From Planctomycetales bacterium (lineage in GTDB: Bacteria > 4484-113 > JAFGCY01): a stretch of 32,000 nucleotides of DNA. The notes beneath the pieces were generated by a model. That model was not told where the DNA came from. It worked only from the letters and a program-made list of their open reading frames with translations, and searched no databases. Position 1 is the stretch's first letter. Each line of letters opens with the position of its first letter. Location of the stretch: NCBI GenBank assembly GCA_022646745.1, contig CP060262.1, positions 2,670,001 to 2,702,000 of the forward strand. The letters run 5' to 3'. Of this stretch, positions 842 to 21,810 are shown piece by piece. Made by a program: the position numbers and the translations under genes.

Positions 842-2833
842 ATGCGCCGGGTCGCTCCAGTCCTCATCTCAGCCCTGCTGGCAATAGCCGCACTGGTTCC
901 TGCCGCAGCCAGTGAGGATACCCAGGTCGATGGCGTGAGCGGACTGCTGTTCACTCCGACTGCCGAAGTGGTCAATGAAGGTCGTGCGGTCTTCACCTGG
1001 AGCCGCCACCTCAACACCACGATCCGCACCAACGGGGAGTTCTTTGAGCGCAGCTATGCGATGACGCTCGGCTACCTGCCGAATGTCGAAGTCGGCATGC
1101 GCTTCGCCGACTTCCCCGACCTGCCGGACAGCAACAACTCCACGAACTTCCAGGACCGCAGCATCAGTGCCAAGCTGCAGCTGTTCAATGAGGACGGCTG
1201 GCAGGGTGCCGTCGGTGCGATCGATCTCGCCGGCGACAGCCAGACCAATGAGGCGATGTACGGCGTGCTGGGCTACAACGGCATTGAGGACCTGGAACTG
1301 AGCGCAGGCTACGGCACTGACAAGCTGGACGGCTTCTTCGGCGGTGCGCGCTGGAGCCCCTTCGACCAGGCCAGCCTGGTCGGTGAATTTGTCAACGACC
1401 AGTTCAACTACGGCCTCGAGGTCCGGCCGCTGAAGGGCCTGACGCTGAAGGCCGGGCGCATCAATGAGGACGACGCCTACCAGGGCAGCTACTCCTTCCC
1501 GCTGGACCCGCGCGGCCAGGAACTGATCTGCTGCCCGGTCGCCATCGAGCGCTGTGAATGCCTTGCCACGGAACCATGTGACATCGCCGCCCAGGTGCGT
1601 GATGCACTGGTGGCTGAGTCATTTGAGAACGTGCTCGTCGGCACCGATGGCGACACGCTGGTGATCGAATACGAGAACCGCCGCTTCCGCGAACAGGTGG
1701 ACGGCCTGGCGGTGGCGGCATTGACGGCGGCGACCCACAGTGGCACAGGCATCACGCGCGTGGTGATCTCTCCGAAGCTTGAGGACGTGCCGCAGATGAG
1801 CTTCATCGCGGACATGGATGAGCTGCTCACCTTCCTTGAGGACCCGGCAGGCAGTTGCCAGAACTTCCTCAGTGTGCCGTACCGCTACAACATGTGCCCG
1901 GCGGACACCGTGTTTGCCAGTGAGGGCAACAAGCGGCCAGGCGCACTCGACGTGTCCGTGCGACCGACAAACAGCTTTGTGATCGCATCTCCATTCCAGC
2001 CCAGCTGGCGCACAGCCTTCGGGCTCGGACTGACTGAGGAACTGTCTCTGGCACGGGGCACCAAGCTGATTGCCCGCCAGAATATTCCCGTGACTGACGA
2101 CATCACCGAGAAGACCGAACCGGTGATGACGAACGCCTTCATCAACTGGAATGACAGCTGGGATGAGGACTTCTTCCTGCAGGCCCAGGCTGGCATGATC
2201 AGCCGCGGCAACTATGGTGGAGTGGCTGAAGCGGGCAAGTACTTTGACAACGACCGCTTCAAGCTCGGCGTCAGCGGCGCCTACATTGAGACGGATGACA
2301 ACGGCGATCCCGAGGACTCCATGATCCTCGGCGAGCTGGCGGTGTTTGAGCCTTCCCTGGACTTCAACATCAGCCTGCAGGGCGGCGAGTTCCTCGAGGG
2401 TGACGACGGTTTCCGCATCACGAGCACCCGCTACTTCGGCCCGACCCAGATCAGCTTCTTCGCCTACGACACCAACATGTCCAGCCCGGCCGGCGGATTC
2501 CGCATCTTCCTGCCGATCCCGCTGTACGACCAGGGCCGCCACGGCAGGTCACGGCTCGGCTGGGCTGACTACTACGGCTTCCAGTACCGCACGGACAGCG
2601 ACCCCTGGGGCAGTGTGCCGCTGCCTGGCTGGGACCTCGACCAGCTGCGGGAGCGCTTGCGCCCTGCCTACGTCAGCGAGCACTACGACGAATTCCGGCG
2701 CGCGGCCTGGCTCTACCTGGAGAACTCCTACTCGCCCTGCGAGCATTGCAGCCATGACCACGAAACAGAAGGGGCCGATGAGCTTGCCGCTGCAATGCCA
2801 GCCACGGAAGGGCAGGACGGCGCAGTTGAGTAG
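842..2833 (+). CDS. YjbH/GfcD-family outer-membrane beta-barrel protein
   Basis: 663-aa ORF with a type I signal peptide (LLAIAALVPAAAS|ED). The N-terminal GVSGLLFTPTAEVVNEGRAVFTWS matches the remembered E. coli YjbH start GGVGLLQTPTARMAREGELSLNY. The mid region GDTLVIEYENRRFR resembles YjbH GDTLYVTGEQVKYR. The C-terminal GGFRIFLPIPLYD resembles YjbH KGVYVSVPLDLFS. There is an extra Cys cluster, CCPVAIERCECLATEPC. Confidence 0.7.
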   Translation: MRRVAPVLISALLAIAALVPAAASEDTQVDGVSGLLFTPTAEVVNEGRAVFTWSRHLNTTIRTNGEFFERSYAMTLGYLPNVEVGMRFADFPDLPDSNNSTNFQDRSISAKLQLFNEDGWQGAVGAIDLAGDSQTNEAMYGVLGYNGIEDLELSAGYGTDKLDGFFGGARWSPFDQASLVGEFVNDQFNYGLEVRPLKGLTLKAGRINEDDAYQGSYSFPLDPRGQELICCPVAIERCECLATEPCDIAAQVRDALVAESFENVLVGTDGDTLVIEYENRRFREQVDGLAVAALTAATHSGTGITRVVISPKLEDVPQMSFIADMDELLTFLEDPAGSCQNFLSVPYRYNMCPADTVFASEGNKRPGALDVSVRPTNSFVIASPFQPSWRTAFGLGLTEELSLARGTKLIARQNIPVTDDITEKTEPVMTNAFINWNDSWDEDFFLQAQAGMISRGNYGGVAEAGKYFDNDRFKLGVSGAYIETDDNGDPEDSMILGELAVFEPSLDFNISLQGGEFLEGDDGFRITSTRYFGPTQISFFAYDTNMSSPAGGFRIFLPIPLYDQGRHGRSRLGWADYYGFQYRTDSDPWGSVPLPGWDLDQLRERLRPAYVSEHYDEFRRAAWLYLENSYSPCEHCSHDHETEGADELAAAMPATEGQDGAVE

Positions 2834-4654: not shown

Positions 4655-4730
4655 GGATTACCGGGATATACCGAACAGGGATCTGACTGGGCCGCAAGCC
4701 GCGACAGGCGGCGTAACTGGGGAGGTCTGC

Positions 4731-5951: not shown

Positions 5952-5953
5952 GC

Positions 5954-7162: not shown

Positions 7163-7165
7163 AGA

Positions 7166-7585
7166 ATGAAGCACATAATTTGTATTTGCATTATTCTGAC
7201 GACCCTGATGATCGTCTCCTGTTCTTCAGGCAAGGCAACGAGTGGAAATGTCTGGCAGGGCTGGGTCAGCATCCAGAGGTTCCTTGCCACTGACAGTGAG
7301 AGCGGTTCGATTCCAGTAGCCGGGAAACAGGCGACTCTCAGGGCTTTCGTTCTCACAATGGCGCGACCAATCAAGATCCGCTGGGAATTCGATGCAGCAA
7401 TTGATCCCATCGTCACGGATTACGCACAGGACAGTCTGGTGGAGACGGAGGTTCTGCTTCCCGCGAGTGAGGATGGTTACAACGTGAGATGCACCATGTA
7501 CGTGATCTACAACGACGAGGAAATCCACAGTTCTAGCAATGACTTCTTCGTCATTGGCACCGGCGAAATCCTGAACGCAGAATAG
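7166..7585 (+). CDS. truncated, degenerate member of the lipoprotein family (PKD-like module only)
   Basis: 139 aa. Lipobox MIVS|CSSG. Contains a degenerate signature KIRWEFDAAIDP. AT-richer than its neighbours. No C-terminal module. Confidence 0.55.
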   Translation: MKHIICICIILTTLMIVSCSSGKATSGNVWQGWVSIQRFLATDSESGSIPVAGKQATLRAFVLTMARPIKIRWEFDAAIDPIVTDYAQDSLVETEVLLPASEDGYNVRCTMYVIYNDEEIHSSSNDFFVIGTGEILNAE

Positions 7586-7608
7586 TTGCTTGAAGGGAGG
7601 GAAAAACC

Positions 7609-8847
7609 ATGTTCAGATTGTCAATCGCGATAATGCTGCTGTCAGTGCTGTGTTCCTGCAATGGTGGCGGGGGAAGCAAGTCGCAACCCTTCAACCACAA
7701 GCTGCAAATCACCCTCACTGACCCCGTCGGGCTCGGCAAGGATGCGCCGCTGCTGGCCGGTGGACAGCAGGCCCGCTTTTCAGCCGTTGTCACAGGGGTG
7801 AACGGCCCTTTCAACATCTCCTGGAACTTCGGCGGGGGCGCAGACAATACGACCAGTAGTCTCGCAGTGGCCGGTACAAGCACGGTGGACGTGCCGATGA
7901 AGGTGATCAGCGGCCAGCAGGACTACACAGCAACAGCGACGGTGACCGACGCTGCAGGAGTCAGCCAGACCTCAGCCATTAACTACCAGCTGCTGGGTTG
8001 GAACAATTCCGCACCGCTGATCGAGGACCTGACCCTGAGCAGCAGCAACCTCCTGACTGTGACAGCTTCTGACGAAGATGGCGACGAACTGAGCTTCAGC
8101 CTGCGCAGGGGGATAGATGACAAGGACCTCGGTCCGCCGGACAGCGTGGATGGCAACGTAGCAGTCTGGGACCTGAGCGATGAGCTGGCCCCGAGCCCGA
8201 ATGACATCCTCGCCAATGGCAATCTCAGCTTCGGCGGCTTCATCGCCACGGTTACGGATGAGCATGGTGCCAGCACTGAAAGCGAGCAGCTCGGAGGAAA
8301 CTTCGAGGCCTTCCCGTTGGAGGATGACACACTCTATGCGATTGCCAGTCGAAGGTCCGCAAAAGTTGGAAATCGCGTCAGGATATTCGTGGCAACCGGT
8401 GATACAGCCCAGCCATTCCTGTATCTCAATAGTTGCGCCGTTGTTGTCGAGAATGATGCCAGGCTGGTACCAAACTCACTTGATGGCGGCTCGTTTGATG
8501 ATGATGGCGCTGCGGACACGCCGATGGATGGTGTCTGGGCTGACGTTGCGGCAAGCAGTATCTTCGTGGATGCCGGTTTCGGTGGTTTCCTGGAGGGAAC
8601 TGACCTCGGTGATGGCACTTATTACATTCCCTTCCACGTAACGCCCTTCAACGGGACACCAATCACTGCAAATGGCTTGCTCTTCAGTTTTGAACTGGAA
8701 TTCCGCAAACCGGGGACCTACCATCTTGGCTTCCTGGAGCACAATGTCATTAGCCGGACCTACTACTCGGATTCTCTGGATGGCCCGGACCACTTCTGGT
8801 CAGACATCAGTAACAACCACGACTACAACACGATCGTGGTGGAGTAG
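7609..8847 (+). CDS. paralogous surface lipoprotein (PKD-like + cadherin-like + conserved C-terminal module)
   Basis: 412 aa. SD GGGAGGG. Lipobox VLCS|CNGG. Contains GPFNISWNFGGGADNTTS and TASDEDGDELSFS. C-terminal module: FPLEDDTLYAIAS...ANGLLFSFELEFRKPGTYHLGF...HFWSDISNNHDYNTIVVE. Confidence 0.85.
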   Translation: MFRLSIAIMLLSVLCSCNGGGGSKSQPFNHKLQITLTDPVGLGKDAPLLAGGQQARFSAVVTGVNGPFNISWNFGGGADNTTSSLAVAGTSTVDVPMKVISGQQDYTATATVTDAAGVSQTSAINYQLLGWNNSAPLIEDLTLSSSNLLTVTASDEDGDELSFSLRRGIDDKDLGPPDSVDGNVAVWDLSDELAPSPNDILANGNLSFGGFIATVTDEHGASTESEQLGGNFEAFPLEDDTLYAIASRRSAKVGNRVRIFVATGDTAQPFLYLNSCAVVVENDARLVPNSLDGGSFDDDGAADTPMDGVWADVAASSIFVDAGFGGFLEGTDLGDGTYYIPFHVTPFNGTPITANGLLFSFELEFRKPGTYHLGFLEHNVISRTYYSDSLDGPDHFWSDISNNHDYNTIVVE

Positions 8848-8851
8848 GAGT

Positions 8852-10087
8852 ATGCATCTTGTTGCCAGAACAGTTTTCCTGCTGCCTGTGCTGTGTTGCC
8901 TGCTAATGCTGCCGGCCTGCGGCTCGGGCGGCGAGAAGCAGGGAAGTGTCGATCCACTGGCCGTTACCTTACATCATCCTGTCAGTACCGGGTCTGACTT
9001 CCCGGGACTTTATGGTTATCAAACTGCAAATATCACTGCTGACATCAGCGGAGGTGTTGCACCTTACAGTCTGACCTGGTTCATGGGAGGAGCTGAAGAG
9101 GACCAGTTCACTGACCTTGATGCCGCAGGTACTGCCATGATCTCAGTCCAGTGGCCATACTTGACTCAGGCAACTTTCTATAATCTGCAACTGCAGGTCA
9201 GTGACGCAGCTGGCAACGTAAGCCAGTCAGGTGTAGAGATCACGGTTGGCCAAGCTCAGGATGTCTGCCTCATATCCATTGACAGCCTCACATACAGCGA
9301 TGGACTGATCCGCGTTAGCGGCAGTGATGCCGATGGTGGCGCGCTGACATTTGCCGCGCAACTGGATTCCGGTGAAGTCATCATCACTGGCCCGTTCAAT
9401 GAAACTGCGACATCAGCGGAGTTCGTTGTTAAGCCCATTGATGTGCTGGAAGGCGGAAACTTCACCGTTACGGTCAGTGCCACTTGCGAGTTAGGTTTCG
9501 AGAATGCCTCAGACTCAGTCTCCGGCTCCTTCGATGCATTCCCATTGGCGGATGACAATCTGTACGCCATTGCCACGACGAACCGGGTGAAAGTTGGAGA
9601 GCCTTTGCTGGTTGTTGTAGCAAGCGGAAAGACTGTTAGTCCGTTTGAATTGGTCAACGTTACGATTTCGTGTGAATCTGGAGCTGAGATCGTCTGGGGA
9701 TCTGGTGATATTGGCATCCCAGACGAAGATGGGCTGCCGGATCAGCCATATGATGGGATCTGGGCTGAGTTGGAAGCTGGTCAGGTGGTGTTTGATCAAC
9801 CTTCACGAGGCGGTTTCATGCCTGTCTTCGATTTTGGTGATGGACCACATTACCCATTCAGGCTACGTATTCATGAAGGACTACCTGTTGCCTCAGTTGG
9901 AATCCTCTTCAACTATCAGTACGTGTTCCATGAGCCTGGCACCTATAGACTGTCAATTTTGGAAAATGAGACTATTCCAACTGATTTTCCGTCCACCTTC
10001 TATAGAGAGTTCAGCACTGGTCCGGACCACTTCTGGTCCGACATCAGCAACAACCATGCCTACAACACGATTGTGGTGGAGCTATGA
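8852..10087 (+). CDS. paralogous surface lipoprotein (PKD-like + cadherin-like + conserved C-terminal module)
   Basis: I chose the internal ATG at 8852 (MHLVARTVFLLPVLCCLLMLPA|CGSGG), which is preceded by GGAGTAGGAG. The track start at 8672 would overlap the previous gene by 176 nt. Contains YSLTWFMGGAEED, GSDADGGALTFAA and ...HFWSDISNNHAYNTIVVEL. Confidence 0.8.
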   Translation: MHLVARTVFLLPVLCCLLMLPACGSGGEKQGSVDPLAVTLHHPVSTGSDFPGLYGYQTANITADISGGVAPYSLTWFMGGAEEDQFTDLDAAGTAMISVQWPYLTQATFYNLQLQVSDAAGNVSQSGVEITVGQAQDVCLISIDSLTYSDGLIRVSGSDADGGALTFAAQLDSGEVIITGPFNETATSAEFVVKPIDVLEGGNFTVTVSATCELGFENASDSVSGSFDAFPLADDNLYAIATTNRVKVGEPLLVVVASGKTVSPFELVNVTISCESGAEIVWGSGDIGIPDEDGLPDQPYDGIWAELEAGQVVFDQPSRGGFMPVFDFGDGPHYPFRLRIHEGLPVASVGILFNYQYVFHEPGTYRLSILENETIPTDFPSTFYREFSTGPDHFWSDISNNHAYNTIVVEL

Positions 10088-11301
10088 GCAGACTAAGCTC
10101 TAAATTAGGTTTCGCTGTTTTCCTGATGGCAATATGCCTGACAGCAGCTTGTGGCAACGGAAAATCCGGTACGGTGGAATTGTCTGTTGAACTCATGCAA
10201 CCTATAGGAACCGGCAGTTTCAGCAGCAATCCACTCGCTCAGCAACCTGGTAGATTCTCCGCCCTGGTCAGTGGTGGCACGGCACCGTATGAGCTTGACT
10301 GGCAGTTTGGTGGATGTGCTGATAACCAGGCTGCCGAAGTCACTGAGGCTGGCATTGTGGAGGCCGACGTGATCTTTTATAACCTGGATGCACCTGCGAC
10401 ATTTACAGCCACAGTTACGGTGGTGGATGCCATTGGCAACAGCGATGTTGATTCCGTCACATTCACTGTTATGGTAGGGACCGATTTGTGCTGGCCGTCC
10501 ATAGATTCGGCGAGATACGAGGATGGCATCATCTCTGTGCACGGTAGTGATCCGAGCGGGAATTCTCTCTACTTTGTCGCAGAGCTGGCCAGTGGCAACG
10601 TGACTGTTGAAGGTCCCTTTAATGAAACTGCGGTCTCTGCAGAGTTCCATGTCAAGGTAAACGACATCCTTGAAGGGGGTAACTTTGTGGTTTCTGTAAC
10701 GGCCAGTTGCGTTGAACTTCCAGGATGGGGCACCGACACAACAGATGTCTTCGGCTCCTTCGATGCCTTTCCGCTGGCGGATGACACTCTGTATGCGATT
10801 GCCACCCAGACCCAGGCCGCTGTCGGCGAGCCGGTGCGCATCGTGGTTGCCACGGGCGACACGGCGTCGTCGTTCCAGTACCTCAATTCCTGCATCCTCA
10901 CCTGGCAGGTGGGAGGCAGCTATGTGGGCCAGTCCTTCGACATCGGCGCGCCGGATGATGTGCCGGAACAGGCAGTGCCGATAGACGGAGTCTGGGGTGA
11001 CATGGGGGCGACGAGCTTCCTGCTGAATTTATTCCCAATCGAAACCATGCCGATCGGAAACGGTCTTCTCGGGACCGGCTTCTACGTCACCCCGCTGGGC
11101 GGCTCGGACATCACAGCCAACGGCCTGCTGTTCAACTTCCAGATGGAGTTCGCGGAACCAGGCACCTATACCATCGGTATCTTGGATAACCCGGAAAGTG
11201 TGGTTTCCCGTACCTACTACCAGGACAGTACGGCAGCAGAAGACTACTTCTGGTCCGACATCAGCAACAACCATGCCTACAACACGATCGTGGTGGAGTA
11301 G
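10084..11301 (+). CDS. paralogous surface lipoprotein (PKD-like + cadherin-like + conserved C-terminal module)
   Basis: 405 aa. ATGA start/stop overlap with the previous gene. Lipobox LTAA|CGNG. Contains YELDWQFGGCADNQ, GSDPSGNSLYFVA and FPLADDTLYAIAT...YFWSDISNNHAYNTIVVE. Confidence 0.85.
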   Translation: MSRLSSKLGFAVFLMAICLTAACGNGKSGTVELSVELMQPIGTGSFSSNPLAQQPGRFSALVSGGTAPYELDWQFGGCADNQAAEVTEAGIVEADVIFYNLDAPATFTATVTVVDAIGNSDVDSVTFTVMVGTDLCWPSIDSARYEDGIISVHGSDPSGNSLYFVAELASGNVTVEGPFNETAVSAEFHVKVNDILEGGNFVVSVTASCVELPGWGTDTTDVFGSFDAFPLADDTLYAIATQTQAAVGEPVRIVVATGDTASSFQYLNSCILTWQVGGSYVGQSFDIGAPDDVPEQAVPIDGVWGDMGATSFLLNLFPIETMPIGNGLLGTGFYVTPLGGSDITANGLLFNFQMEFAEPGTYTIGILDNPESVVSRTYYQDSTAAEDYFWSDISNNHAYNTIVVE

Positions 11302-11382
11302 GGGTGGCTGGCCGGAAGTGCAAGGCAACCCAATGCCGCAGTTTGGACCGGAATTCAGGATTACTTACTAAGGAGGACAGGA

Positions 11383-11586
11383 TTGGCGCCGATAGAGAGG
11401 GGAATTGCGGAGTTTGACCGGGATGTAGCCTGCAATTTCTGCCCGGTACTTCACAGTACAGGGGAAATTATGTACCATCTAGGATGTTCACCGCTGGGTC
11501 AGGGGAATCCTGGACAGTTCGTGGATGACCCGGGTGTCGGACACCTGGTGTCCAGGTTCGGGCGAACTACCGCGACCCGATGGTGA
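11383..11586 (+). CDS. hypothetical small protein (67 aa, TTG start); doubtful
   Basis: AGGAGG (11371-11376) lies 6 nt upstream of TTG 11383, inside the 475-bp gap of the array. There is no recognisable motif and the codon usage is unremarkable. Confidence 0.3.
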   Translation: MAPIERGIAEFDRDVACNFCPVLHSTGEIMYHLGCSPLGQGNPGQFVDDPGVGHLVSRFGRTTATRW

Positions 11587-11687
11587 AATCATGGTAGTAT
11601 TTATTGTTCAGGTGTGACTATATTAATAAGGTATGAATCGGCTGTATTATCCGTTCGTCACGGAATTTACTTTTGTGACAGTTTCTG

Positions 11688-11716
11688 TTGCGGTTTAACT
11701 GAGTATCGGATATAAT
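11688..11716 (+). promoter_or_regulatory. sigma70-type promoter candidate for the last paralog
   Basis: TTGCGG (11688-11693), 17-nt spacer, perfect TATAAT (11711-11716). It sits in the AT-rich stretch of the window, about 60 nt upstream of the GTG start. Confidence 0.45.
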
Positions 11717-11776
11717 TGCCAGACTTAAACCTGTACCGTTCCGACACACCTGTGTATGTGGTTAAGGAGGAATGTT

Positions 11777-12982
11777 GTGAAAAACTTTATCGTCCTGGTG
11801 GCACTTGGGCTTCTCGCTCTTGTGTCAAGCTGCGATACTCTTAACATCGGCAGTGGCCAGCCGCAGAGGCTGTCCATCGAGCTGAGCGCTCCGGTGGCAA
11901 CCGGTGCTAACGCACCGGGCCTGTTCGGTTCTGAGACTGCTACGTTTTCCGCTGCCATTATTGGTGTGAACGGACCGTTCAACATCTCTTGGAACTTCGG
12001 CGGCGCCGCCACCAACACGACCAGCACCCTGGCCGTGGCCGGCACCAGCACCGTCAGCGTGACCTTCGTTGACCTCGCTGCTGCCACTGACTTCACCGCC
12101 ACCGCGACCGTCACCGACGGCGCCGGCGTGAGCCAGTCTGATTCCGTGACCTTCAACGTGGGCGCTACCCAGAACCAGAGCCCGAGCATCGACAGCCTGA
12201 CCTTCGCGGGCGGCACGATCTCCGTCACCGGTTCTGATCCGGATGGCGACAGCCTGACCTTCAGCGCTTCCCTTGACAGCGGCGATGTGACCGTGAGTGG
12301 CCCGAATGGTGCCAACGCGACCAGCGCCAGCTTCGGCGTGAGCCCCAACGACATCCTTGCCGGCGGTAACTTCACCGTGACCGTGACGGCTGATGACGGC
12401 AAGGGCGGCACCGCCTCCGATTCCGTCAGCGGCAGCTTCGACGCCTTCCCGCTGGCTGATGACACCCTGTATGCAATCGCTACCGCTTCCAGCGCCAGCG
12501 CTGGCGGTAACGTCCGCATCGTGATCGCCACCGGTGACACCGCCAACAGCTTCCAGTACCTGAACGGCTGCGGCGTGGTCTGCGAGAACGGCGCTTCCTA
12601 TGCCGCCACCTCCTTCGACGTCGGTACCCCGGATGACACTCCGGACGTTGGCTCCGCCAACCCGATCGACGGCGTGTGGGGCGACATGGGCGCCACCAGC
12701 TTCCTGCTGGCTCCGGATAACTTCATCACCGGCACCGATCTCGGCGACGGCACCAGCCGTACCGACTTCAACGTCACCCCGCTGGGTGGTAGTGACATCA
12801 CTGCGAACGGTCTGCTCTTCAACTTCGAGTACACCTTCGCCAGCGCTGGCACCTACACCCTTGGTTTTGAGGCCGTGAACGTTGTGAGCCGCACCTACTA
12901 CCAGGACAGCACTGCTGCGACGGACTTCTTCTGGGGCGACATCAACAACACCCACGACTACAACACCATTACCGTGAACTAG
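11777..12982 (+). CDS. paralogous surface lipoprotein, probable highly expressed copy
   Basis: GTG 11777 lies 6 nt after a consensus AAGGAGG (11764-11770). The track's ATG at 11756 is the alternative start. Lipobox LVSS|CDT. Contains GPFNISWNFGGAATNTTS and GSDPDGDSLTFSA. The C-terminal module is about 85-90% identical in protein to the 4731 and 5954 genes but recoded with C/G-ending codons. Confidence 0.85.
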   Translation: MKNFIVLVALGLLALVSSCDTLNIGSGQPQRLSIELSAPVATGANAPGLFGSETATFSAAIIGVNGPFNISWNFGGAATNTTSTLAVAGTSTVSVTFVDLAAATDFTATATVTDGAGVSQSDSVTFNVGATQNQSPSIDSLTFAGGTISVTGSDPDGDSLTFSASLDSGDVTVSGPNGANATSASFGVSPNDILAGGNFTVTVTADDGKGGTASDSVSGSFDAFPLADDTLYAIATASSASAGGNVRIVIATGDTANSFQYLNGCGVVCENGASYAATSFDVGTPDDTPDVGSANPIDGVWGDMGATSFLLAPDNFITGTDLGDGTSRTDFNVTPLGGSDITANGLLFNFEYTFASAGTYTLGFEAVNVVSRTYYQDSTAATDFFWGDINNTHDYNTITVN

Positions 12983-12999
12983 TAATTAGCTCGAACACA

Positions 13000-13064
13000 G
13001 GTAACAGGAACCAGGCCCGGTTCGGATGTGGAGTAATCCGCGTCCGGCCGGGCCTGCCGTTACC
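13000..13064 (+). other. long imperfect intercistronic stem-loop
   Basis: GGTAAC...CAGGCCCGG (13012-13020)...CGGAT/ATCCG...CCGGGCCTG (13048-13056)...GTTACC. There is no U-tract after it, so it is not a canonical terminator. Confidence 0.4.
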
Positions 13065-13087
13065 ACCCCCCGGATGATGCAGGCCCA

Positions 13088-13117
13088 TTGTCCGGAAAAA
13101 CAGGAATCCGGTACAAT
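13088..13117 (+). promoter_or_regulatory. weak promoter candidate for the 1035-aa gene
   Basis: TTGTCC (13088-13093), 18-nt spacer, TACAAT (13112-13117). AAGGAG lies just before ATG 13196. Confidence 0.25.
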
Positions 13118-13195
13118 TAATGTTATTGGACTCCCTGTTCAATTCTGTGGGCTGCTAGCTGCCCTGAGGCGGCCGGCCCCGAGAAGGAGAGAAGC

Positions 13196-16100
13196 ATGAC
13201 TTTACGTAAGATGTTTACCGGCGTGCTCTGCATTCTCATCCTGCTGATCAGCGCGAGCTGCTCCAACAGCAAGAATGTTGGACTGTCCCAGCCGGATGAC
13301 CAGCGGAACACCACCGGTGTCAGCGTCGATTCCTTTGAGATCACCCGCTACAACGCGGCTGGTTTCGAGGATGCAAGCCTCAACCAGAGCATCGATGCTT
13401 ACATTGAGCAGGTGGGATCCGAGACTGCATTGGTCATCAGCGTTGATGAGCCGGATGTGGATCGCACGATTGCGCTCAACATCGACTTCGACGGCGTCAA
13501 CATGCATTACGAGCGCACCGAGTTCCACGGTCTGCTTGGCAATGATGACGATGTGCTGGGTGCCAGTTTCGGCCTGACTGAAAGTGTCCAGCTTGGCCAG
13601 ACGGCCATCCGTGACTACGATCCGGGCAGCATCAGTGGCCGCTTCGCCACTGTGTACTTCGCCCCCGGCGCGAGCCGTACGGCGAGTGCAATTCCCGGTG
13701 ATGTCTACAAGAGCAGCACCGGTGTTGCCGTCAACCGTTGCGGTGACAACGCCAGCTTCGTGGCTGACGAGGAAACCGAGAATGAGGCCTGGTTCACCAA
13801 TGGCTGGATGATGGCTGACGGTGACCAGAACGGCCAGTGCACGATTGCCGACATCACCCCGATCGGCATCTACCTGAACCAGAGCTGTGAGACCAACCCG
13901 CTCGCGACCCGTGCGGACTATGACAACAACGGCCAGGTTACGATTTCCGAGCTGACCCCGCTGGGCGTACACCTCAATGAGGGTGTGGCAAGTTATCGTG
14001 TTGGCCTGCGTGATGACGGTGATACCGGCACCACGCTGTCTGCAGAGAAGACCGTTGATCCCAGCGCGGACGCGATTGCCGCATCCGGCACTCCGGCGGT
14101 GGCTGATCTGCGCACGATCTTCCGTCATTACAACGTGGCATCCCTTTTCACCCCTGGTGAAATCGCGGCTGCCAACGTTAATGGCACCAACGGTGTCGAG
14201 ATCTGCGTGATTCCGACCAACACCAACTCTGCCAATGGCACCGGCACCCTGGCATTCGTGCCCTGGGGTGGCACAGTTGTTGGTCAGGATGATGAAATCG
14301 TTGTCACCAACTTCGACATCCAGATGGTGGGTGTCGGCGGCGGCAGCGGTGATGACAGCAACATCTTCGACAGCGGCATCAGCGGCGGTGACGTCACTGC
14401 CAACGCTGACGTGAGCTTCCAGGTGAACGCAATCGAGGGTACCTTCAACGGCCTTGACTTCGATGCCACCACCCTGCCAGAGGGCATGGACGCTGCTCAC
14501 TACGCCAATACCCTGACTGCTGTGCGAGACAATGCGAACTGGACCTTCGGCACTGCCGGAGCTGCCGGCTTCCGCAGTACCTCCGCCTGGGTGACTGACG
14601 GTGCGGGTAATGACCTTGGAGGCGTGGGCGACCCCGGCGCCGGTGTGGTCTTCCCGGATTACGACCCCGAGTCTGACGAGTTCAGCCCCGAGGGTACCCT
14701 GAATGTGAACCTCGCTGCCGCAGCCTCCCTGGCGACCGGCACCGTGGCCAGCAAGAACTACAAGGTCGTCGTGCTTTCCGAGCGTGATTACAACTGGACC
14801 GTGGATGTCCTCCGCGACCCGCAGCAGGCCACCTTTGGCCCGATCCTGAAGCAGGGCTTCGACCCGCAGGATGAGTACGCGCTTGTCATCGGTACCCGTT
14901 CCTTCTTCTTCACCGCCGATTGGGGCGATCTTGGCGTTCCCGCCAACTTCGACAGCATCGAGATGGAGATCTGGAAGGTCGAGGGCACCGGCCCGGGCAA
15001 CTGCTCCCGTGTCAACGACTTCACCTTCACCGAAGGTACCCCCGGTACCGGTGAGTTCGGCATTCGTGAGAACACTGAGAACCCCGGCGAGTACGTGTTT
15101 GAGTACGTCGTCAACGGTGCAAACCTGCAGGGTAGCAGCCAGTACGTGGTGCGCTGGTTCAACGGCGTTGAATGGTCCTCCATCAACATGCCCGAGAACA
15201 AGACCATCCCGTCCGGTCCTGCCCCGGCTGCCGCTGACCTGACCAGCATCCCGAACGCGGGCGGCTACAAGGGCAGCGCGAAGGTCGACTTCCTGCAGAT
15301 CCTCTACCCGAACCCGAAGATCCGCCGCTGGAGCGACGTGTTCCCGAACCCCGAGACTGAGTCAGTCGACGTTGAAAAGGGCCTCGACAACGACGGCGTC
15401 CAGGTTGACAAGACCCTGGCCTTCAATGACATTCTGCGCACCAACGGTGATGAGTTCGCGATCTTCGTGACCCCGATCGACAGCCCGCAGGGCTTCTCGA
15501 TCTGGCCCCAGGTCCTGATCAAGAACTTCACCGCCACCGGCGCCAGCGATGTCACCAGTGCTGACATCCCGCTTGCCACCCCGAGTGGCCCGATCTACTG
15601 GTCAGCCTCGGGCGCCAGCGCGATCATCGTCGCCCAGCACGGTCTTGGCCGAGTTGTGGTGGACATCGCCGGTCTTCCCACCGATGACGGTGAATTCGGC
15701 CCGATCAACTACGGTTTCGGCCTGTTCAGCCCGCAGGGTGTGGATTACCTTGAGGTTGGTGAAGGCACCTTCACCATGTCCCCGGTGGATGGCACCGTGG
15801 CCCCGAACGCGATCAACTGGGGTATCGACGCCTTCGACCGCGAGGAGCGCGACCTTGATAACGGTGATTACAGCAACCACATCCTCAACGGTTCCTTCGT
15901 GAACGACCCGGTCCAGCCCTTCGTGCTGTGGATCGAGTTCAACGGCGGTAACGTCTACGACTGGGAGCAGAACGAGGAGAAGGTCTGGAAGCTCAACGGC
16001 TCGCTGGACAACATCTATGTCCAGGTCAAGGACGTTGACCAGCCTGCTGATGTCCGCATCATGGAGGTTGGCCTGCGCCTTGTGGGTGTGACCCCGACCG

Positions 16101-16303
16101 GAACCTTCCTTGCAATCCACACGATCACCAACCGCGACTTCGTCAAGTTCGGCGCTCCGCCGAGCCAGACCTGGGGCATCCTTGCTCCGGGCCACAAGTA
16201 CGAGGTTTCGGTCAATGACCGTGTCCTCAGCCCCGGCGGCGACAGCTTCGGCACCGGCGCTGCTGACCTGCTGACCGTGATCGGTACCAACCCGAACACC
16301 TAG
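13196..16303 (+). CDS. large lipoprotein with a dockerin-like double EF-hand module
   Basis: 1035 aa. Lipobox LISAS|CSNS. Residues ~208-262 are DGDQNGQCTIADITPIGIYL...DYDNNGQVTISELTPLGVHL: two 12-residue D-x-D-x-N-G-x5-[DE] loops, each followed by a helix, as in type I dockerins. The rest is beta-rich with no recognisable catalytic motif. Codons are strongly biased like those of the 11777 gene. Confidence 0.8.
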   Translation: MTLRKMFTGVLCILILLISASCSNSKNVGLSQPDDQRNTTGVSVDSFEITRYNAAGFEDASLNQSIDAYIEQVGSETALVISVDEPDVDRTIALNIDFDGVNMHYERTEFHGLLGNDDDVLGASFGLTESVQLGQTAIRDYDPGSISGRFATVYFAPGASRTASAIPGDVYKSSTGVAVNRCGDNASFVADEETENEAWFTNGWMMADGDQNGQCTIADITPIGIYLNQSCETNPLATRADYDNNGQVTISELTPLGVHLNEGVASYRVGLRDDGDTGTTLSAEKTVDPSADAIAASGTPAVADLRTIFRHYNVASLFTPGEIAAANVNGTNGVEICVIPTNTNSANGTGTLAFVPWGGTVVGQDDEIVVTNFDIQMVGVGGGSGDDSNIFDSGISGGDVTANADVSFQVNAIEGTFNGLDFDATTLPEGMDAAHYANTLTAVRDNANWTFGTAGAAGFRSTSAWVTDGAGNDLGGVGDPGAGVVFPDYDPESDEFSPEGTLNVNLAAAASLATGTVASKNYKVVVLSERDYNWTVDVLRDPQQATFGPILKQGFDPQDEYALVIGTRSFFFTADWGDLGVPANFDSIEMEIWKVEGTGPGNCSRVNDFTFTEGTPGTGEFGIRENTENPGEYVFEYVVNGANLQGSSQYVVRWFNGVEWSSINMPENKTIPSGPAPAAADLTSIPNAGGYKGSAKVDFLQILYPNPKIRRWSDVFPNPETESVDVEKGLDNDGVQVDKTLAFNDILRTNGDEFAIFVTPIDSPQGFSIWPQVLIKNFTATGASDVTSADIPLATPSGPIYWSASGASAIIVAQHGLGRVVVDIAGLPTDDGEFGPINYGFGLFSPQGVDYLEVGEGTFTMSPVDGTVAPNAINWGIDAFDREERDLDNGDYSNHILNGSFVNDPVQPFVLWIEFNGGNVYDWEQNEEKVWKLNGSLDNIYVQVKDVDQPADVRIMEVGLRLVGVTPTGTFLAIHTITNRDFVKFGAPPSQTWGILAPGHKYEVSVNDRVLSPGGDSFGTGAADLLTVIGTNPNT

Positions 16304-16326: not shown

Positions 16327-16356
16327 GGCCCCCCGCCCCGGCGGGGGGCCTTTTTG
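16327..16356 (+). terminator. rho-independent terminator
   Basis: GGCCCCCCG (16327-16335) pairs with CGGGGGGCC (16342-16350), followed by TTTTTG. It lies 24 nt after the stop of the 1035-aa gene. Confidence 0.85.
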
Positions 16357-16367
16357 CTTTCTGCGGC

Positions 16368-16606: not shown

Positions 16607-17824
16607 ATGAACGACTATGCAGGCAAACCACTGGCGGTACTGGCCTTCTCCGGTGGTCTTGATACATCTTTTTGTGTTGTATGGCTCATTGAGCAGGGCT
16701 ATCGTGTCCATACTGTGCATGTGAACACCGGTGGCTTTGATGCCGCCGGCCTCGCTGCCATCGAGCAGCGGGCATTGCAGTGCGGTGCCCAGCAGCATGC
16801 CAGCATTGACGCCCGGGCCGACTTGTTCCAGTCGCACCTGCGCTACCTGCTGTTTGCCAACGCGCGGCGCGGTGCGGGATATCCGTTGTGTGTCTCTTCG
16901 GAGCGGCTCTGCCAGGCGCGGCACGCAGCTAAGTATGCTGTGGAGAATAAGGCTGATGCGATCGTGCATGGCAGTACCGGTGCCGGCAATGACCAGCTGC
17001 GCTTTGACACAGTGTTCGGGGTGATGGCTCCCGGCATCAGGCTACTCACACCGATCCGTGATCTGGCCCTCAGTCGCGAACAGGAGGTGGCCTACCTGGC
17101 AGGGCATGGCGTGGAAGTGGATGCCAGCACGGGATCCTACAGCGTGAACGCCGGAATGTGGGGTATGACCATCGGAGGCAGGGAAACCCATGGCAGCTGG
17201 GAAAGCCTGCCTGCTGAAGCATGGCCAGATGCGGCCTCTTCGCAGGTTGCTGTCCGGGAAATCATCATCGGTTTTGAGCAGGGCATTCCCATATCAGTCG
17301 ATGGCACGTCCATGCCGCCCGTGGAACTGATCGAGATGCTCAATACAGTCGGCGGGCAATTCGCAATCGGCCGCGGCATGCACCTCGGAGACACCGTGCT
17401 TGGCATCAAGGGCCGCGTGGCCTTCAGTGCCCCGGCTGCCCACATCCTGATTGAAAGCCACCGTGAACTGGAGAAACTTACACTGAGTGCCAGCCAGCAG
17501 TTCTGGAAGGAGACGCTTGGCAACCTCTACGGCCGGATGGTGCATGAGGGCCAGGCGCTTGATCCGCTCTGCCGCGACCTGGAGGCTATGCTCGAATCCA
17601 GCCAGCGCATGGTCAGCGGTGAGGTCCGCGTCAGGCTGCAGGATGGTTACATGCAGGTGCTGGGCAGCCGTTCGCCGCATTCGCTGATGGCGCTGCAGCC
17701 CGCTGCATATGGCGAGCAGTCCACTGGCTGGAGCGGGGATGAGGTCGCTGCCTACAATAAGCTGCATGCAATGCAGCAGAAGCTGTGCTGGGCCCAGCAG
17801 CAGCAGGCGGAGGCTGCGCAATGA
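16607..17824 (+). CDS. argG: argininosuccinate synthase
   Basis: 405 aa. Contains AFSGGLDTSF (N-type ATP pyrophosphatase motif), YPLCVSSER and HGSTGAGNDQLRFD. These variants look like the Bacteroidota-type ArgG as I remember it. Confidence 0.92.
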   Translation: MNDYAGKPLAVLAFSGGLDTSFCVVWLIEQGYRVHTVHVNTGGFDAAGLAAIEQRALQCGAQQHASIDARADLFQSHLRYLLFANARRGAGYPLCVSSERLCQARHAAKYAVENKADAIVHGSTGAGNDQLRFDTVFGVMAPGIRLLTPIRDLALSREQEVAYLAGHGVEVDASTGSYSVNAGMWGMTIGGRETHGSWESLPAEAWPDAASSQVAVREIIIGFEQGIPISVDGTSMPPVELIEMLNTVGGQFAIGRGMHLGDTVLGIKGRVAFSAPAAHILIESHRELEKLTLSASQQFWKETLGNLYGRMVHEGQALDPLCRDLEAMLESSQRMVSGEVRVRLQDGYMQVLGSRSPHSLMALQPAAYGEQSTGWSGDEVAAYNKLHAMQQKLCWAQQQQAEAAQ

Positions 17825-18888
17825 GGATCAGGGCTGACAAGATCGCCAGTGTGACGCGTGGGCTGTCGCTGGACAGCCAGCTCTCACTGGGCAGTGAGAT
17901 ACTCTGCCGGGAGGGAAGTGTCGTCGCATGTCGCGTGCTCAACGACAAGTCCACCTACCGGCAGCTGGAGGACATCCACGGCCGAATGACCTCAGTCAAG
18001 CGCGGAGACGTGATCGTCGGTGTGCTTGGCAACCGGCAGGCCCTGCATGGCTATGAGGGCCACGTGCCTGAATCGCTGGCAGTCGGCGACAGGTTGCAGC
18101 TGCTGAACCTTGGCGGGGTGATCGGAGTCTGCACCTCAGCCAATCCTGAAGTCGGTCCACCCTTTGAACTGGAACTGCTGGGCCAGGTCCAGAGCTATCC
18201 CGGCTTCCAGTCGCGGCGTCCGGTGGCAGCGGAGATCAGCCAGCCTGATGCAGGCTTGCCTGAGCTCAGTAATATCCCGCCGATCGTTCTGATCTGCGGC
18301 AGCTGCATGAACAGCGGCAAGACCGTGGCCGCCAGTGCGATCGTCAGTGAACTGTGCCGGGCCGGCCTGCTGGTTGCTGGCGCAAAGCTGACTGGCGTAT
18401 CCCTGCTGCGTGATGTGCTCTCCATGAAGGACTACGGCGCTGCCAACGTGATGGATTTCACCGATGCCGGATTCCCGAGCACGGTACCCAGCAATGCCGT
18501 GATGGCTGCCCGCCGCGTGGTCAATGGACTGTCGCAGTTCAAGCCGCAGGTGATTGTCGTGGAAATGGGAGACGGGATCTTTGGCACCTATGGTGTGCAG
18601 CAGATCCTTGACGACAGCAGCATCGCCGGCTGCATCAAGGTGCTGGTGTACTGTGCGAATGACCCGGCCGGAGCCTTCGGTGGGGCCCGCCAGCTGCAGG
18701 AGCGGCACGGGCTGGCGCTTGATGTGGTCAGTGGTCCTGTGACCGACAACCAGGTCGGACGACGCTATATCGAGGAGGAGCTCGGATTGCCTGCAATAAA
18801 TGCAAGAATGGATGCGGCGGCACTCGGTGGGCTGGCATTACAGGCGCTGGGCTACGGTCCTGCTGGAGGCGGCGATGCGACAGATTGA
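17821..18888 (+). CDS. uncharacterised P-loop protein embedded in the arg operon
   Basis: ATG 17821 overlaps the argG stop (ATGA). 355 aa. The N-terminal ~150 aa look beta-rich (GSVVACRVL...KRGDVIVGVLGNRQ). A Walker-A-like motif ICGSCMNSGKT follows, then a hydrophobic strand with acidic residue VIVVEMGDG. The 3' end overlaps argC by 14 nt. Confidence 0.6.
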   Translation: MRIRADKIASVTRGLSLDSQLSLGSEILCREGSVVACRVLNDKSTYRQLEDIHGRMTSVKRGDVIVGVLGNRQALHGYEGHVPESLAVGDRLQLLNLGGVIGVCTSANPEVGPPFELELLGQVQSYPGFQSRRPVAAEISQPDAGLPELSNIPPIVLICGSCMNSGKTVAASAIVSELCRAGLLVAGAKLTGVSLLRDVLSMKDYGAANVMDFTDAGFPSTVPSNAVMAARRVVNGLSQFKPQVIVVEMGDGIFGTYGVQQILDDSSIAGCIKVLVYCANDPAGAFGGARQLQERHGLALDVVSGPVTDNQVGRRYIEEELGLPAINARMDAAALGGLALQALGYGPAGGGDATD

Positions 18889-19933
18889 CGTGATCATCAT
18901 CGGAGCCAGCGGCATGGGAGGCGGTGAGCTGTTGCGCTACCTCATGCAGCATCCACTTGCCAATCCCATTCAGCTTGTCAGCCGCAGCCGGGCAGGGGAG
19001 TCCGTCGCGTCAGTCCATCCGCATCTCGGAGCCTATGCACAGATGCGCTTTGAGGCCAGTCTGGGACTGCCCTCAGGCGAATCCAGCGACCCGCTTGTCA
19101 TCTTCTGCGCGATGGGACATGGCGAGTTTGCCCAGTCCTGGCCAGCGCTGCGCGACCAGCTGGAGTTGCTCAGGAAGCACAGGAGGGTAGTCGTGATCGA
19201 CATCTCCGCTGACTTCAGGCTGAGTGACCCTACAGCATGGCTCAAATACTATTGTGAGGCGCATCCCTGCCCGCAGTACCTGGATGATTTCGTCTACGGC
19301 CTGCCGGAACATGCCCGGGACGCAATCGCCATCTCAGACCGGATTGCCAGTCCAGGCTGCTTTGCCACCGCGATCAACCTCTGCCTGCTGCCACTTGCCG
19401 GCAGAATAAGCAGCAAGCATGTAGCCATCGCTGCCATGACCGGCAGCAGCGGCTCCGGCAATCGTCCATCAGAAGGCACGCACCATCCATTCAGGGCGCA
19501 TGACCTGCGCGCTTACCAGATGCTGCGCCACCGGCACCAGGCTGAACTGGAGATGATGCTGGCAGCCCGTGGCAACAAGGATGTGCGGATCTCCTTCGTG
19601 CCCCACAGTGCCCCGCTGGTGCGCGGGATCTTTGCAACGGTGATGATTGACTGTGACAGTGCCGCCGAAGCGCGTGAGCTGGCTGGACTGGTTGCCAGCA
19701 GCTATGAGGGCGAGCCATTCGTGCATTACACTACCGCCTCGCCACGTGTGGCTGTGGTTGCCGGCAGCAACATGGCACAGGTCACGGTCAGCAGTGAGGA
19801 TCGCAGCCTGCTCGTGATGTGTGCGATTGACAACCTTGGCAAGGGCATGGCTGGGCAGGCAATCCAGAACATGAACATCGCACTCGGGCTTGATGAAACC
19901 AGCGGGCTGCAGTCAGCGGCGGTCTACCCCTAG
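18875..19933 (+). CDS. argC: N-acyl-gamma-glutamyl-phosphate reductase
   Basis: The internal ATG 18875 gives MRQIDVIIIGASGMGGGELLRYL, a Rossmann NAD(P) fold. The catalytic Cys motif is ASPGCFATA. C-terminal motif: DNLGKGMAGQAIQNMN. Confidence 0.9.
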   Translation: MRQIDVIIIGASGMGGGELLRYLMQHPLANPIQLVSRSRAGESVASVHPHLGAYAQMRFEASLGLPSGESSDPLVIFCAMGHGEFAQSWPALRDQLELLRKHRRVVVIDISADFRLSDPTAWLKYYCEAHPCPQYLDDFVYGLPEHARDAIAISDRIASPGCFATAINLCLLPLAGRISSKHVAIAAMTGSSGSGNRPSEGTHHPFRAHDLRAYQMLRHRHQAELEMMLAARGNKDVRISFVPHSAPLVRGIFATVMIDCDSAAEARELAGLVASSYEGEPFVHYTTASPRVAVVAGSNMAQVTVSSEDRSLLVMCAIDNLGKGMAGQAIQNMNIALGLDETSGLQSAAVYP

Positions 19934-19936
19934 GAG

Positions 19937-20935
19937 ATGGCAATGCGACACATCACACACATCAGGGATCTTGGAGTAGATGGAGTCAGCCGCGTGCTGG
20001 ACCGGGCACTGGGCTGGAAGACCACTGCACCTGGCGCTATCTTCAGCGGCCGGATCCTTGGCATGCTGTTCTTCAACCCCTCACTGCGCACAAGGGCCTC
20101 CTTTGAGGCTGCCATGCTGCGGCAGGGCGGCCATGCGATAGTCATCGACGTGAACTCCGGCAGCTGGAAGCTTGAAACCGCGGATGGAGCAGTGATGGAT
20201 GGCGACAGGCCGGAGCATATCCGTGAAGCCATCCCCGTACTCGGCGGCTACGTGGACGCGCTGGCAGTGCGCTGCTTTGCCGACGGCAATCCGGCAGTGG
20301 ACGTGCAGGACCAGCTGATGCACAGCATCCGGGCCCACAGCCTTGTGCCCGTCGTCAGCATGGAGTCGGCACGGGAGCATCCCTGCCAGGGCCTGGCTGA
20401 CATGCTGACAATCCGCGAACACTGTGGCGAACTGGCAGGCAGGAAAGTGACACTGAGCTGGGCGCCACACATCAAGCCGCTGCCGCAGGCCGTGCCGAAC
20501 AGCTTCCTGCTGAGTGCCGCAGCAGCGGGCTGTGAGATAACGGTTGCCCATCCGCCCGGGCTTGAGCTGCAGGATGAGGTGCTGAGTGAAGCACAGCAGC
20601 TTGCGCAGGAAAGCGGTGCACGGATCAGCTTTCGCAATGACCAGCAGGCAGCCTGTGCTGATGCGGAAGTGTTATATGCCAAGAGCTGGGGTGGAGCAAC
20701 GGATCTGGATTTCGCCGAGCTTGCAAGGCAGCATAGCGGTTGGCAGGTCACGCGCAGCCTGCTTGAAGCAGGCAATGTGCGCAGCAAACTGATGCACTGC
20801 CTGCCGGTCAGGCGCAACGTGGTGCTCAGTGACGACGCGCTGGACTCGGAGCTGAGCCTGGTGGCACCGCAGGCGCACAACCGCCTGCATGTGCAGCGCA
20901 GCCTGCTGCATGAAGTGTTCAACGGAGGAAACTGA
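19937..20935 (+). CDS. argF: N-acyl-L-ornithine carbamoyltransferase (AOTCase/SOTCase family; Pro92 suggests succinylornithine type)
   Basis: 332 aa. Contains FFNPSLRTRASFE, VMDGDRPEHIRE, HPCQ, YAKSWG, HCLPVRRNV and HNRLHVQ. These match the remembered Xanthomonas AOTCase motifs (FFNPSMRTRTSFE, VMDGDTEEHIAE, HCLPLRRNV, ENRLHVQ) rather than a classical OTCase. Confidence 0.85.
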   Translation: MAMRHITHIRDLGVDGVSRVLDRALGWKTTAPGAIFSGRILGMLFFNPSLRTRASFEAAMLRQGGHAIVIDVNSGSWKLETADGAVMDGDRPEHIREAIPVLGGYVDALAVRCFADGNPAVDVQDQLMHSIRAHSLVPVVSMESAREHPCQGLADMLTIREHCGELAGRKVTLSWAPHIKPLPQAVPNSFLLSAAAAGCEITVAHPPGLELQDEVLSEAQQLAQESGARISFRNDQQAACADAEVLYAKSWGGATDLDFAELARQHSGWQVTRSLLEAGNVRSKLMHCLPVRRNVVLSDDALDSELSLVAPQAHNRLHVQRSLLHEVFNGGN

Positions 20936-21810
20936 TGCACGGATACTATGAATTCCTGCGGACAGCGACGCCCTATGTGCGCGCCAACCGAGGCCGGCTG
21001 TTCGTTGTCAAGCTTGGCGGCGAGATGCTGGACGACCCGCGCATTGCCAGCCAGATCCTTGAGCAGGTGGCGATGCTGCAGCACCTCGGCATAAACATGA
21101 TGCTCGTGCATGGCGGTGCGCCGCAGATCGCCAGCCTCTGTGGGCGGCTTGGATTGCCCGTGCAGATGCACGCCGGCCGCCGCATCACGGATAAGCAGGT
21201 GCTGGAGGCGGTTTCCATGTCACTGTGCGGCAGCATGCAGTCGCACATCTGTGCCGAGCTAACGGCCCTCGGAGTACGGAGTGTCGGTGTCAGCGGAGCT
21301 GATGCCGGCCTCGTGGTTGCCAGTCGCCGTCCGCCGGTGGATGACGGCAGTGGCAACATGGTGGACTTTGGGGAGGTCGGCGACATCACCGACATTGACG
21401 CTTCGCTGATCGCTACACTCAGTGACAACGGCTTCTTGCCGGTGGTGGCCCCGCTGGCCAGTGACGGAGCCGGGCAGCTGCTGAATATCAATGCAGATAC
21501 AGTTGCCGCCGGTCTGGCGGTTGCCTGCGGTGCTGCCAAGCTGATCTTCATGATGAGACCAGCCGGAATCCTCGCCAATGCTGATGACCCGGGCAGCCTG
21601 ATCCCGGAACTCAGCCTTGCGGAACTGAAGGCACTTGAGTCAGATGGATCAATCAGTGGCGGCATGCTGCCGAAGTCGGCTGCCACGCACAGCGCCATTG
21701 CTGGCGGGGTGGAGCGCGTGCACTTCGTCAGCGGCCTGGCTGAGGATGCTCTGCTGCGTGAGATCTTCACCAATGAAGGCAGCGGCACGATGGTGGTGCC
21801 GGATGCTTGA
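20935..21810 (+). CDS. argB: N-acylglutamate kinase
   Basis: 291 aa. The start overlaps the argF' stop by 1 nt. Contains VVKLGGEML, LVHGGAPQI and NINADTVA, amino-acid kinase family motifs. Confidence 0.9.
   Translation: MHGYYEFLRTATPYVRANRGRLFVVKLGGEMLDDPRIASQILEQVAMLQHLGINMMLVHGGAPQIASLCGRLGLPVQMHAGRRITDKQVLEAVSMSLCGSMQSHICAELTALGVRSVGVSGADAGLVVASRRPPVDDGSGNMVDFGEVGDITDIDASLIATLSDNGFLPVVAPLASDGAGQLLNINADTVAAGLAVACGAAKLIFMMRPAGILANADDPGSLIPELSLAELKALESDGSISGGMLPKSAATHSAIAGGVERVHFVSGLAEDALLREIFTNEGSGTMVVPDA

Follow-up and report, generated by a model that had tools for sequence, protein, structure and literature searches.

A divergent dockerin-like module adjacent to a predicted cohesin-like domain in putative lipoproteins of uncultivated diderm bacteria

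Few modular protein-protein interactions are known to be as tight as those of cohesin-dockerin pairs, which have found wide use in synthetic biology. Cellulosomal dockerins, such as the X-dockerin of Acetivibrio cellulolyticus ScaA (4WI0/4U3S) and a dockerin of Pseudobacteroides cellulosolvens (2Y3N_B), are composed of two segments of about 22 residues, each with a Ca2+ loop carrying Asp at position 12 and a helix, and of a linker helix, with a total length of about 60-70 residues. In the amylosome protein Amy4 of Ruminococcus bromii, cohesin and dockerin of one and the same polypeptide bind each other, which implies multimerisation (PMC4611034). For freshwater Planctomycetes, a 'planctosome' adaptor has been proposed that combines a signal peptide, a dockerin and a cohesin in a single protein (PMC6461901), non-cellulosomal cohesin and dockerin modules were proposed for the Cloacimonadota, which are uncultivated diderms (PMC8542988), and non-cellulosomal modules of Archaeoglobus fulgidus are cited in PMC4611034. 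The present analysis concerns a dockerin-like module encoded on a stretch of 32,000 nucleotides of contig CP060262.1 (assembly GCA_022646745.1, labelled Planctomycetales bacterium; positions 2,670,001 to 2,702,000 of the forward strand). This whole stretch is referred to as the window, and positions are counted from its first letter. The module is part of an open reading frame (ORF) at 13196..16303 (+), the product of which comprises 1035 amino acids (aa).

The window module has the segment layout of the cellulosomal dockerins, including the linker helix and, in its family, Asp at loop position 12. It differs from them in a score below the Pfam threshold, a D-[IL]-T-P-[IL]-G signature, Pro and Gly within the predicted helices, and Gln at loop position 4, as well as in its context: the module lies close to the N-terminal end of a lipoprotein, the source belongs to a diderm candidate phylum, and no carbohydrate-active enzyme is linked to it. 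As in Amy4, one polypeptide carries both a module of the dockerin kind and a domain that is predicted to be cohesin-like. The amylase Amy4 (GH13), which is secreted by a Gram-positive bacterium, has its modules far apart, whereas those of the window lipoprotein are adjacent and N-terminal, and their binding to each other may be suggested by analogy. In the planctosome and Cloacimonadota systems, too, cohesin and dockerin modules are present in uncultivated diderms without a link to cellulose breakdown. In the planctosome adaptor, however, the order is dockerin, HYR and cohesin, and in the window protein it is cohesin-like domain, linker and dockerin-like module. The modules of the planctosome, the Cloacimonadota and A. 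fulgidus were found with standard domain models, whereas those of the window were missed by them; in the cited accounts of these systems, as far as they describe them, no tie to a YjbH-like gene cluster or to a lipid anchor is reported. The window protein is most likely a divergent addition to the known non-cellulosomal cohesin and dockerin modules.

Translation of positions 13817-13984 (+), which correspond in frame to aa 208-263, yielded DGDQNGQCTIADITPIGIYLNQ-SCETNPLATRA-DYDNNGQVTISELTPLGVHLNEG. A previous sequence-only reading of the locus had described two tandem 12-residue Ca2+ loops with subsequent helices about 11 residues apart, and the translation agrees exactly with this description. 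Segment 1 (aa 208-229; 13817..13882, +) consists of the Ca2+ loop DGDQNGQCTIAD and the predicted helix ITPIGIYLNQ, and segment 2 (aa 241-262; 13916..13981, +) of the Ca2+ loop DYDNNGQVTISE and the predicted helix LTPLGVHLNE. The two 22-residue segments, each of which includes one 12-residue loop, are identical at 12 of 22 positions and are connected by the 11-residue linker SCETNPLATRA (13883..13915, +). With the conserved Trp204 taken as its start and the end of segment 2 as its end, the complete dockerin-like module, as delimited by profile, model and Foldseek match, covers aa 204-262 (13805..13981, +). A strict EF-loop pattern, D-x-[DN]-x-[DN]-G-x-[ILVCM]-x3-[DE], was matched only twice across the six-frame translation of the 32-kb window, both times within the module. 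After shuffling of the 1035-aa protein (n=20,000), at least one strict loop was obtained in 0.7% of the sequences and two loops in none; a chance origin of the duplicated motif is therefore excluded.

A word-indexed search retrieved eight close relatives of the 1035-aa protein (31-82% identity), all annotated as 'hypothetical', and cluster look-ups returned the name 'hypothetical protein' only. The dockerin-like module was kept in every homologue found, even at 24-35% identity. In an alignment of 42 relatives, the Ca2+-ligand positions 1, 3, 5, 9 and 12 were conserved. Position 1 was Asp in 40/42 sequences for loop 1 and in 42/42 for loop 2, position 5 was Asn or Asp in all 42 sequences in both loops, and position 12 was Asp in 42/42 for loop 1, with 39 Asp and 3 Glu for loop 2; the window protein itself has Glu at position 12 of loop 2. 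Asp at this position is the habit of dockerins and Glu that of EF-hands.

Affiliation of the module was analysed with a hidden Markov model (HMM) that was built from eight homologues and searched against all PDB sequences. Matches were obtained to 4WI0_B (E 2.7e-5), 4U3S_B (1e-4), 4FL4_A (1.2e-3) and 2Y3N_B (7.9e-3), followed by the dockerins of 2YIK, 1CLC, 2CCL, 1OHZ and 2B59. Dockerin-bearing chains accounted for 11 of 15 among the matches listed, with alignments covering both segments, and calmodulin-type proteins were missing. Pfam Dockerin_1 (PF00404) was found in 17 of the 42 family members; it remained sub-threshold in five of eight homologous modules and exceeded the threshold in the related modules of P0091 (29.8 bits), P0142 (32.5 bits) and P0187 (44.2 bits). 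Among 1.84 billion representative proteins, the module HMM recovered 1644 at E<=1e-3, and the signature D-[IL]-T-P-[IL]-G was common to 121 of the 146 best module matches. From the module-bearing proteins of other architecture, 62 were sampled and 36 of these matched Dockerin_1 at E<=1e-3; therefore, as judged from sequence, the module grades into recognised dockerin space.

A structural model of aa 30-270 was calculated with AlphaFold without templates from 42 sequences, with a mean predicted local distance difference test score (pLDDT) of 81. For the module (pLDDT 67-93), helices were predicted at aa 217-225, aa 235-240 (a short one in the linker) and aa 250-259. The helices following the loops begin at loop position 10, and single beta bridges pair the loops at position 7 of each. 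An entering helix before loop 1 was not present in the model, and the predicted topology is that of a three-helix paired F-hand dockerin and not that of a four-helix EF-hand pair. A Foldseek search against the PDB matched the module to dockerin 2Y3N_B with a template modelling (TM) score of 0.76, a root-mean-square deviation of 1.9 A over 62 columns, a probability of 1.00 and an E-value of 1.8e-2. The designation as dockerin-like, which had been made from the letters alone, is borne out in that the family profile, the predicted fold and the Pfam-positive related modules support residues 204-262 as a divergent dockerin.

Both data sets also bear on the alternative that the module is a calmodulin-type EF-hand pair serving as a Ca2+ sensor or buffer. 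The window module resembles such pairs (PF00036/PF13499) in its 12-residue DxDxNG loops about 33-36 residues apart and in the short beta bridge. A single-sequence PDB search matched calmodulins (E ~3e-3), Pfam EF-hand_1 scored 20.5 bits on loop 2, and loop 1 is preceded, at -4 and -8, by aromatic side chains that are reminiscent of an entering helix. The EF-hand_1 score is, however, below the threshold of 25.4 bits, EF-hand_7 gave no match for the window module, and the family profile preferred dockerins although calmodulins far outnumber them in the PDB. Loop 1 lacks a preceding helix in the model, Asp predominates at position 12 in the family, which is dockerin-like, and the protein is extracytoplasmic and lipid-anchored. 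The calmodulin identity indicated by the single-sequence search was dropped, since the profile search and the AlphaFold model favour a dockerin; an EF-hand pair is considered very improbable.

Assignment to a dockerin type was less straightforward. Type I dockerins, of the Clostridium thermocellum type, carry a Ser-Thr or similar pair at positions 10-11 of each segment. The corresponding recognition positions of the window module are occupied by I-A and I-S, and by sequence the module is matched best by a type II X-dockerin. Of the type I dockerin layout that had been proposed, the duplicated loop-helix arrangement stands; with the Ser-Thr pair absent and the best match belonging to type II, type I cannot be assigned.

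The remaining part of the protein had been regarded as free of motifs. This view has to be revised, as a cohesin-like domain is predicted upstream of the module, separated from it by a linker of about 45 residues. The region aa ~41-157 (13316..13666, +) was modelled as a beta-sandwich of about nine strands with pLDDT above 90. Its best Foldseek matches were cohesins (2JH2, 4UYP, 5NRM, 1G1K, 2VN5, 6KGF, 4UMS, 4DH2 and others), with probabilities of 0.97-1.00 and E-values of 4.5e-3 to 0.1 over 100-110 columns. Pfam Cohesin matched 5 of 42 family members. In homologue P0204, the match at aa 82-165 exceeded the gathering score (28.9 vs 24.1 bits), directly preceded the dockerin-like module of that protein and aligned to aa ~76-164 of the window protein; the alignment between the two proteins is limited to aa 52-282 of the latter (E 3e-13). 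Sub-threshold Cohesin matches were located at the same place in P0153, P0202, P0190, P0124, P0133, P0142 and P0187. Based on the Foldseek matches and the Pfam matches in homologues, aa ~41-157 may be regarded as a cohesin-like domain, the signal of which is weak by sequence. The subsequent stretch of aa 158-203 (13667..13804, +), with pLDDT 44-51 and no secondary structure, is probably a flexible linker; its length and sequence vary among homologues.

Recurrence of this arrangement was analysed by running an HMM of the N-terminal domain on 154 proteins, comprising the 146 best module matches and the eight earlier homologues. In 68 of the 154 proteins, the module was immediately preceded by a cohesin-like domain; 26 of these 68, with lengths of 304-1341 aa and unrelated C-termini, were not included in the training set of the HMM. 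The protein P0142 (1281 aa) contains two complete cohesin-linker-dockerin cassettes, and in the independent set Pfam Cohesin was again found sub-threshold at the expected place, alongside above-threshold Dockerin_1 matches such as that of P0142. Since order and spacing are fixed across many unrelated proteins, these data argue that the cohesin-like and dockerin-like modules work together. When lineage-specific HMMs were applied to all ORFs of the window, the sole cohesin-like and the sole dockerin-like domain were both found in the 1035-aa protein. Dockerin-only proteins, in which a cohesin-like domain was not detectable, are encoded at loci L012 (ORF from 9506, 1501 aa) and L014 (ORF from 4103, 858 aa) of the same metagenome-assembled genomes (MAGs) as cassette proteins, which hints at a wider interaction network.

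The preferred reading, considered reasonably probable, is that a linker tethers a Ca2+-dependent dockerin of the protein to its cohesin-like domain, for envelope assembly or anchoring with itself or dockerin-only proteins as partners. Two F-hand repeats, in which a helix follows a 12-residue Ca2+ loop, would pack as a small three-helix module, and the flexible linker of about 45 residues would tie this dockerin to the cohesin-like sandwich at the lipid-anchored N-terminus. In the presence of Ca2+, the dockerin would fold and bind a cohesin surface, the most parsimonious partner being the cohesin-like domain of the same protein family. Binding in trans would lead to head-to-tail multimers or a surface lattice, comparable to Amy4 of R. 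bromii; binding in cis would alternatively give a closed unit. A free cohesin could also bring in dockerin-only proteins whose genes are located in other parts of the genomes concerned. In a diderm of the UBP7 type, the cassette may serve to hold the large, variable C-terminal part of the protein on display at the cell envelope. A more far-reaching interpretation, which is put forward tentatively, is that the cassette represents a hitherto unrecognised self-assembly unit of uncultivated diderms (UBP7 and MAGs labelled Planctomycetales) that forms a Ca2+-dependent surface scaffold. Cassette lipoproteins would polymerise head-to-tail and recruit dockerin-only proteins, and the export or organisation of the scaffold would be linked to a YjbH-like outer-membrane barrel and a growing array of immunoglobulin (Ig)-domain lipoproteins. 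This would amount to a non-cellulosomal, 'cellulosome-like' architecture of the outer membrane, and the dockerins with the signature D-[IL]-T-P-[IL]-G would form a new subtype.

Several results weigh against a dockerin tethered to its own cohesin. Dockerin_1, the Pfam model by which the sequence-only reading was to be verified, was not detected in the whole-protein scan, and the isolated module scored 13.3 bits (E 0.099) at a gathering score of 22.9, in a sub-threshold match that reaches both segments (profile positions 3-50 of 57). In scans with Pfam and NCBIfam, the whole 1035-aa protein yielded nothing beyond a 12-bit EF-hand_1 match. Pro at position 15 and Gly at position 17 of each segment, within the predicted helices, are unusual for dockerins. 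The Foldseek search as a whole returned no PDB match at E<=1e-3, and the TM scores of aa ~41-157 to cohesins were about 0.5. Pfam Cohesin (PF00963) gave no match to the window protein at E<=1; searches of the PDB sequences with two profiles of the N-terminal domain (8-sequence A2 and 36-sequence A8) gave no significant cohesin match; the top matches of the domain profile were cohesins only, at E 0.2-0.8. Finally, many non-cellulosomal dockerin-like modules are, to our knowledge, without a demonstrated partner.

These results also give room to the explanation that the module is a structural Ca2+ element that stabilises or stiffens an N-terminal stalk and perhaps binds another ligand such as a glycan, without a cohesin-type partner, and that the sandwich is a generic Ig or jelly-roll spacer. 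Such a role would accommodate the weak cohesin signal in the sequence of the window protein, the modest Foldseek E-values, the lack of a detectable cohesin-like domain in about half of the module-bearing proteins and, from general knowledge, the commonness of dockerin-like modules with no known partner outside cellulosomes. It is at variance with the fixed order of cohesin-like domain, linker and dockerin-like module that 68 or more representative proteins share despite their unrelated C-termini and that occurs twice in P0142, with the Pfam Cohesin matches that fall at one and the same site in several independent proteins and in one case exceed the threshold, and with the fact that all structural matches of the N-terminal domain with a probability near 1.0 were cohesins. 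A purely structural element is regarded as rather unlikely.

The tethered-dockerin reading places the protein at the cell envelope, and the sequence upstream of the cassette is consistent with such a location. The N-terminus (13196..13261, +), read directly from the sequence as MTLRKMFTGVLCILILLISAS followed by C, represents a lipoprotein signal peptide that ends in a lipobox-compatible LISAS before C22. At the aligned site, homologues have LAAC or LTAC, and the Cys shows hardly any variation among the 42 aligned sequences. The proposed lipid anchor and the position of the module near the N-terminus (aa 204-262 of 1035) were in agreement with the sequence-only reading. Downstream of the cassette, the remainder (aa 263-1035; 13982..16303, +) is beta-rich and belongs to no known family, and in other cassette proteins this part is swapped for unrelated sequence. 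The motif GDPGxGxVFPDxDPES at aa 478-493 (GDPGAGVVFPDYDPES, positions 14627-14674) is almost invariant across the 31-82% identical homologues, with conserved positions G478, D479, P480, G481, G483, P487, D488, D490, E492 and S493; it could be a metal or ligand site. An intrinsic-terminator-like hairpin with 10 G-C pairs and a T run (16327..16360, +) closes the transcription unit.

Relatives in GTDB genomes were found in MAGs labelled 'bacterium isolate UBP7' or 'Planctomycetales bacterium', the second label being probably a loose one. Down to 31% identity, gene order was kept at three loci (L001, L002 and L003) and comprises a small lipoprotein, a YjbH-like outer-membrane protein, at least one Ig-domain lipoprotein of about 400-570 aa, and the protein of about 1000 aa. 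In the window, the 239-aa lipoprotein (96-815) is located 5' of the YjbH-like gene (842..2833, +; Pfam PF06082, E 3.4e-26). The Ig-domain lipoprotein, a single copy at this position in distant relatives, is represented by seven tandem paralogues (3371-12982, +) of about 400 aa at 3371-4654, 4731-5951, 5954-7162, 7609-8847, ~8900-10087, 10084-11301 and 11756-12982. Each consists of two Ig/PKD/cadherin-like domains and a C-terminal module of about 180 aa, encoded for example at 12428-12979, that belongs to no known family and ends with ...FWSDISNxHxYNTIVVE; at least 65 family members are present in metagenomes.

According to a third alternative, the dockerin docks onto these C-terminal modules of the seven neighbouring lipoproteins, which would act as cohesins. 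The sequence-only reading had likewise named them as candidate partners. The paralogue family adjoins the ~1000-aa gene in distant relatives, too, and no terminator was evident in the gap that separates the 1035-aa gene from the last paralogue. In addition, the biased codon usage common to these two genes, as noted before, was confirmed: at third codon positions, the frequencies of C (C3) and A (A3) were 0.52-0.59 and 0.02-0.03, respectively, in the last paralogue and the 1035-aa gene (11756-16303), at values of 0.12-0.18 for A3 and 0.52-0.68 for G plus C (GC3) in paralogues 2-6 (4731-11301). This heterogeneity could reflect expression level or separate evolutionary histories. Against docking to the neighbours, five sequence tests of the C-terminal module for a cohesin signal were negative. 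None of the 65 family members matched Pfam Cohesin, and the family profile found no cohesin in the PDB, with matches confined to the Ig/cadherin/PKD part. Alignment of the C-module with the profile of the cohesin-like N-terminal domain by hhalign gave a probability of 0.1%, a profile search of 5.8 billion proteins returned only 10 close relatives, all unannotated, and the lineage cohesin-like HMM, run on all window ORFs, detected nothing in the paralogues. Neighbour docking is judged improbable.

Some further features of the gene cluster were recorded. The paralogues at 4731-5951 and 5954-7162 have almost identical C-terminal halves from LEPDTLYAIATSDRTSAGGNVRVVVATG... onward and different N-terminal halves, a sequence pattern that suggests recent gene conversion or partial duplication. 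The 471-aa ORF listed at 8672-10087 (+) begins inside the end of the preceding paralogue; its real start is probably an internal Met before ...LLMLPAC at ~8880-8900, resulting in a lipoprotein of about 400 aa. Two short lipoproteins are encoded within the array, at 2918-3346 (142 aa) and 7166-7585 (139 aa), both on the + strand, and genes of 140 and 136 aa occupy matching places at locus L002. The 142-aa lipoprotein bears the W-x-F-G-G motif of the first Ig-like domain of the paralogues. Directly downstream of the cluster, an arginine-biosynthesis run (16607-21810, +) was found, which is syntenic in L002. Pfam matches at the latter locus comprised argininosuccinate synthase, N-acetyl-gamma-glutamyl-phosphate reductase, ornithine carbamoyltransferase and an amino-acid kinase family protein, presumably acetylglutamate kinase. 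This run appears unrelated to the cohesin and dockerin modules.

For the biology of these bacteria, the analysis implies that a whole family of 'hypothetical' lipoproteins of an uncultivated phylum carries a cohesin-like and a dockerin-like module side by side in a fixed order that escaped standard domain models. If the predicted binding holds true, it would provide a functional handle on a conserved envelope cluster of UBP7-type bacteria, consisting of the YjbH-like barrel, the Ig-lipoprotein array and the ~1000-aa protein. It would also define a divergent dockerin and cohesin subtype with possibly orthogonal specificity, and cohesin-dockerin assembly would extend to lipid-anchored proteins of diderm bacteria.

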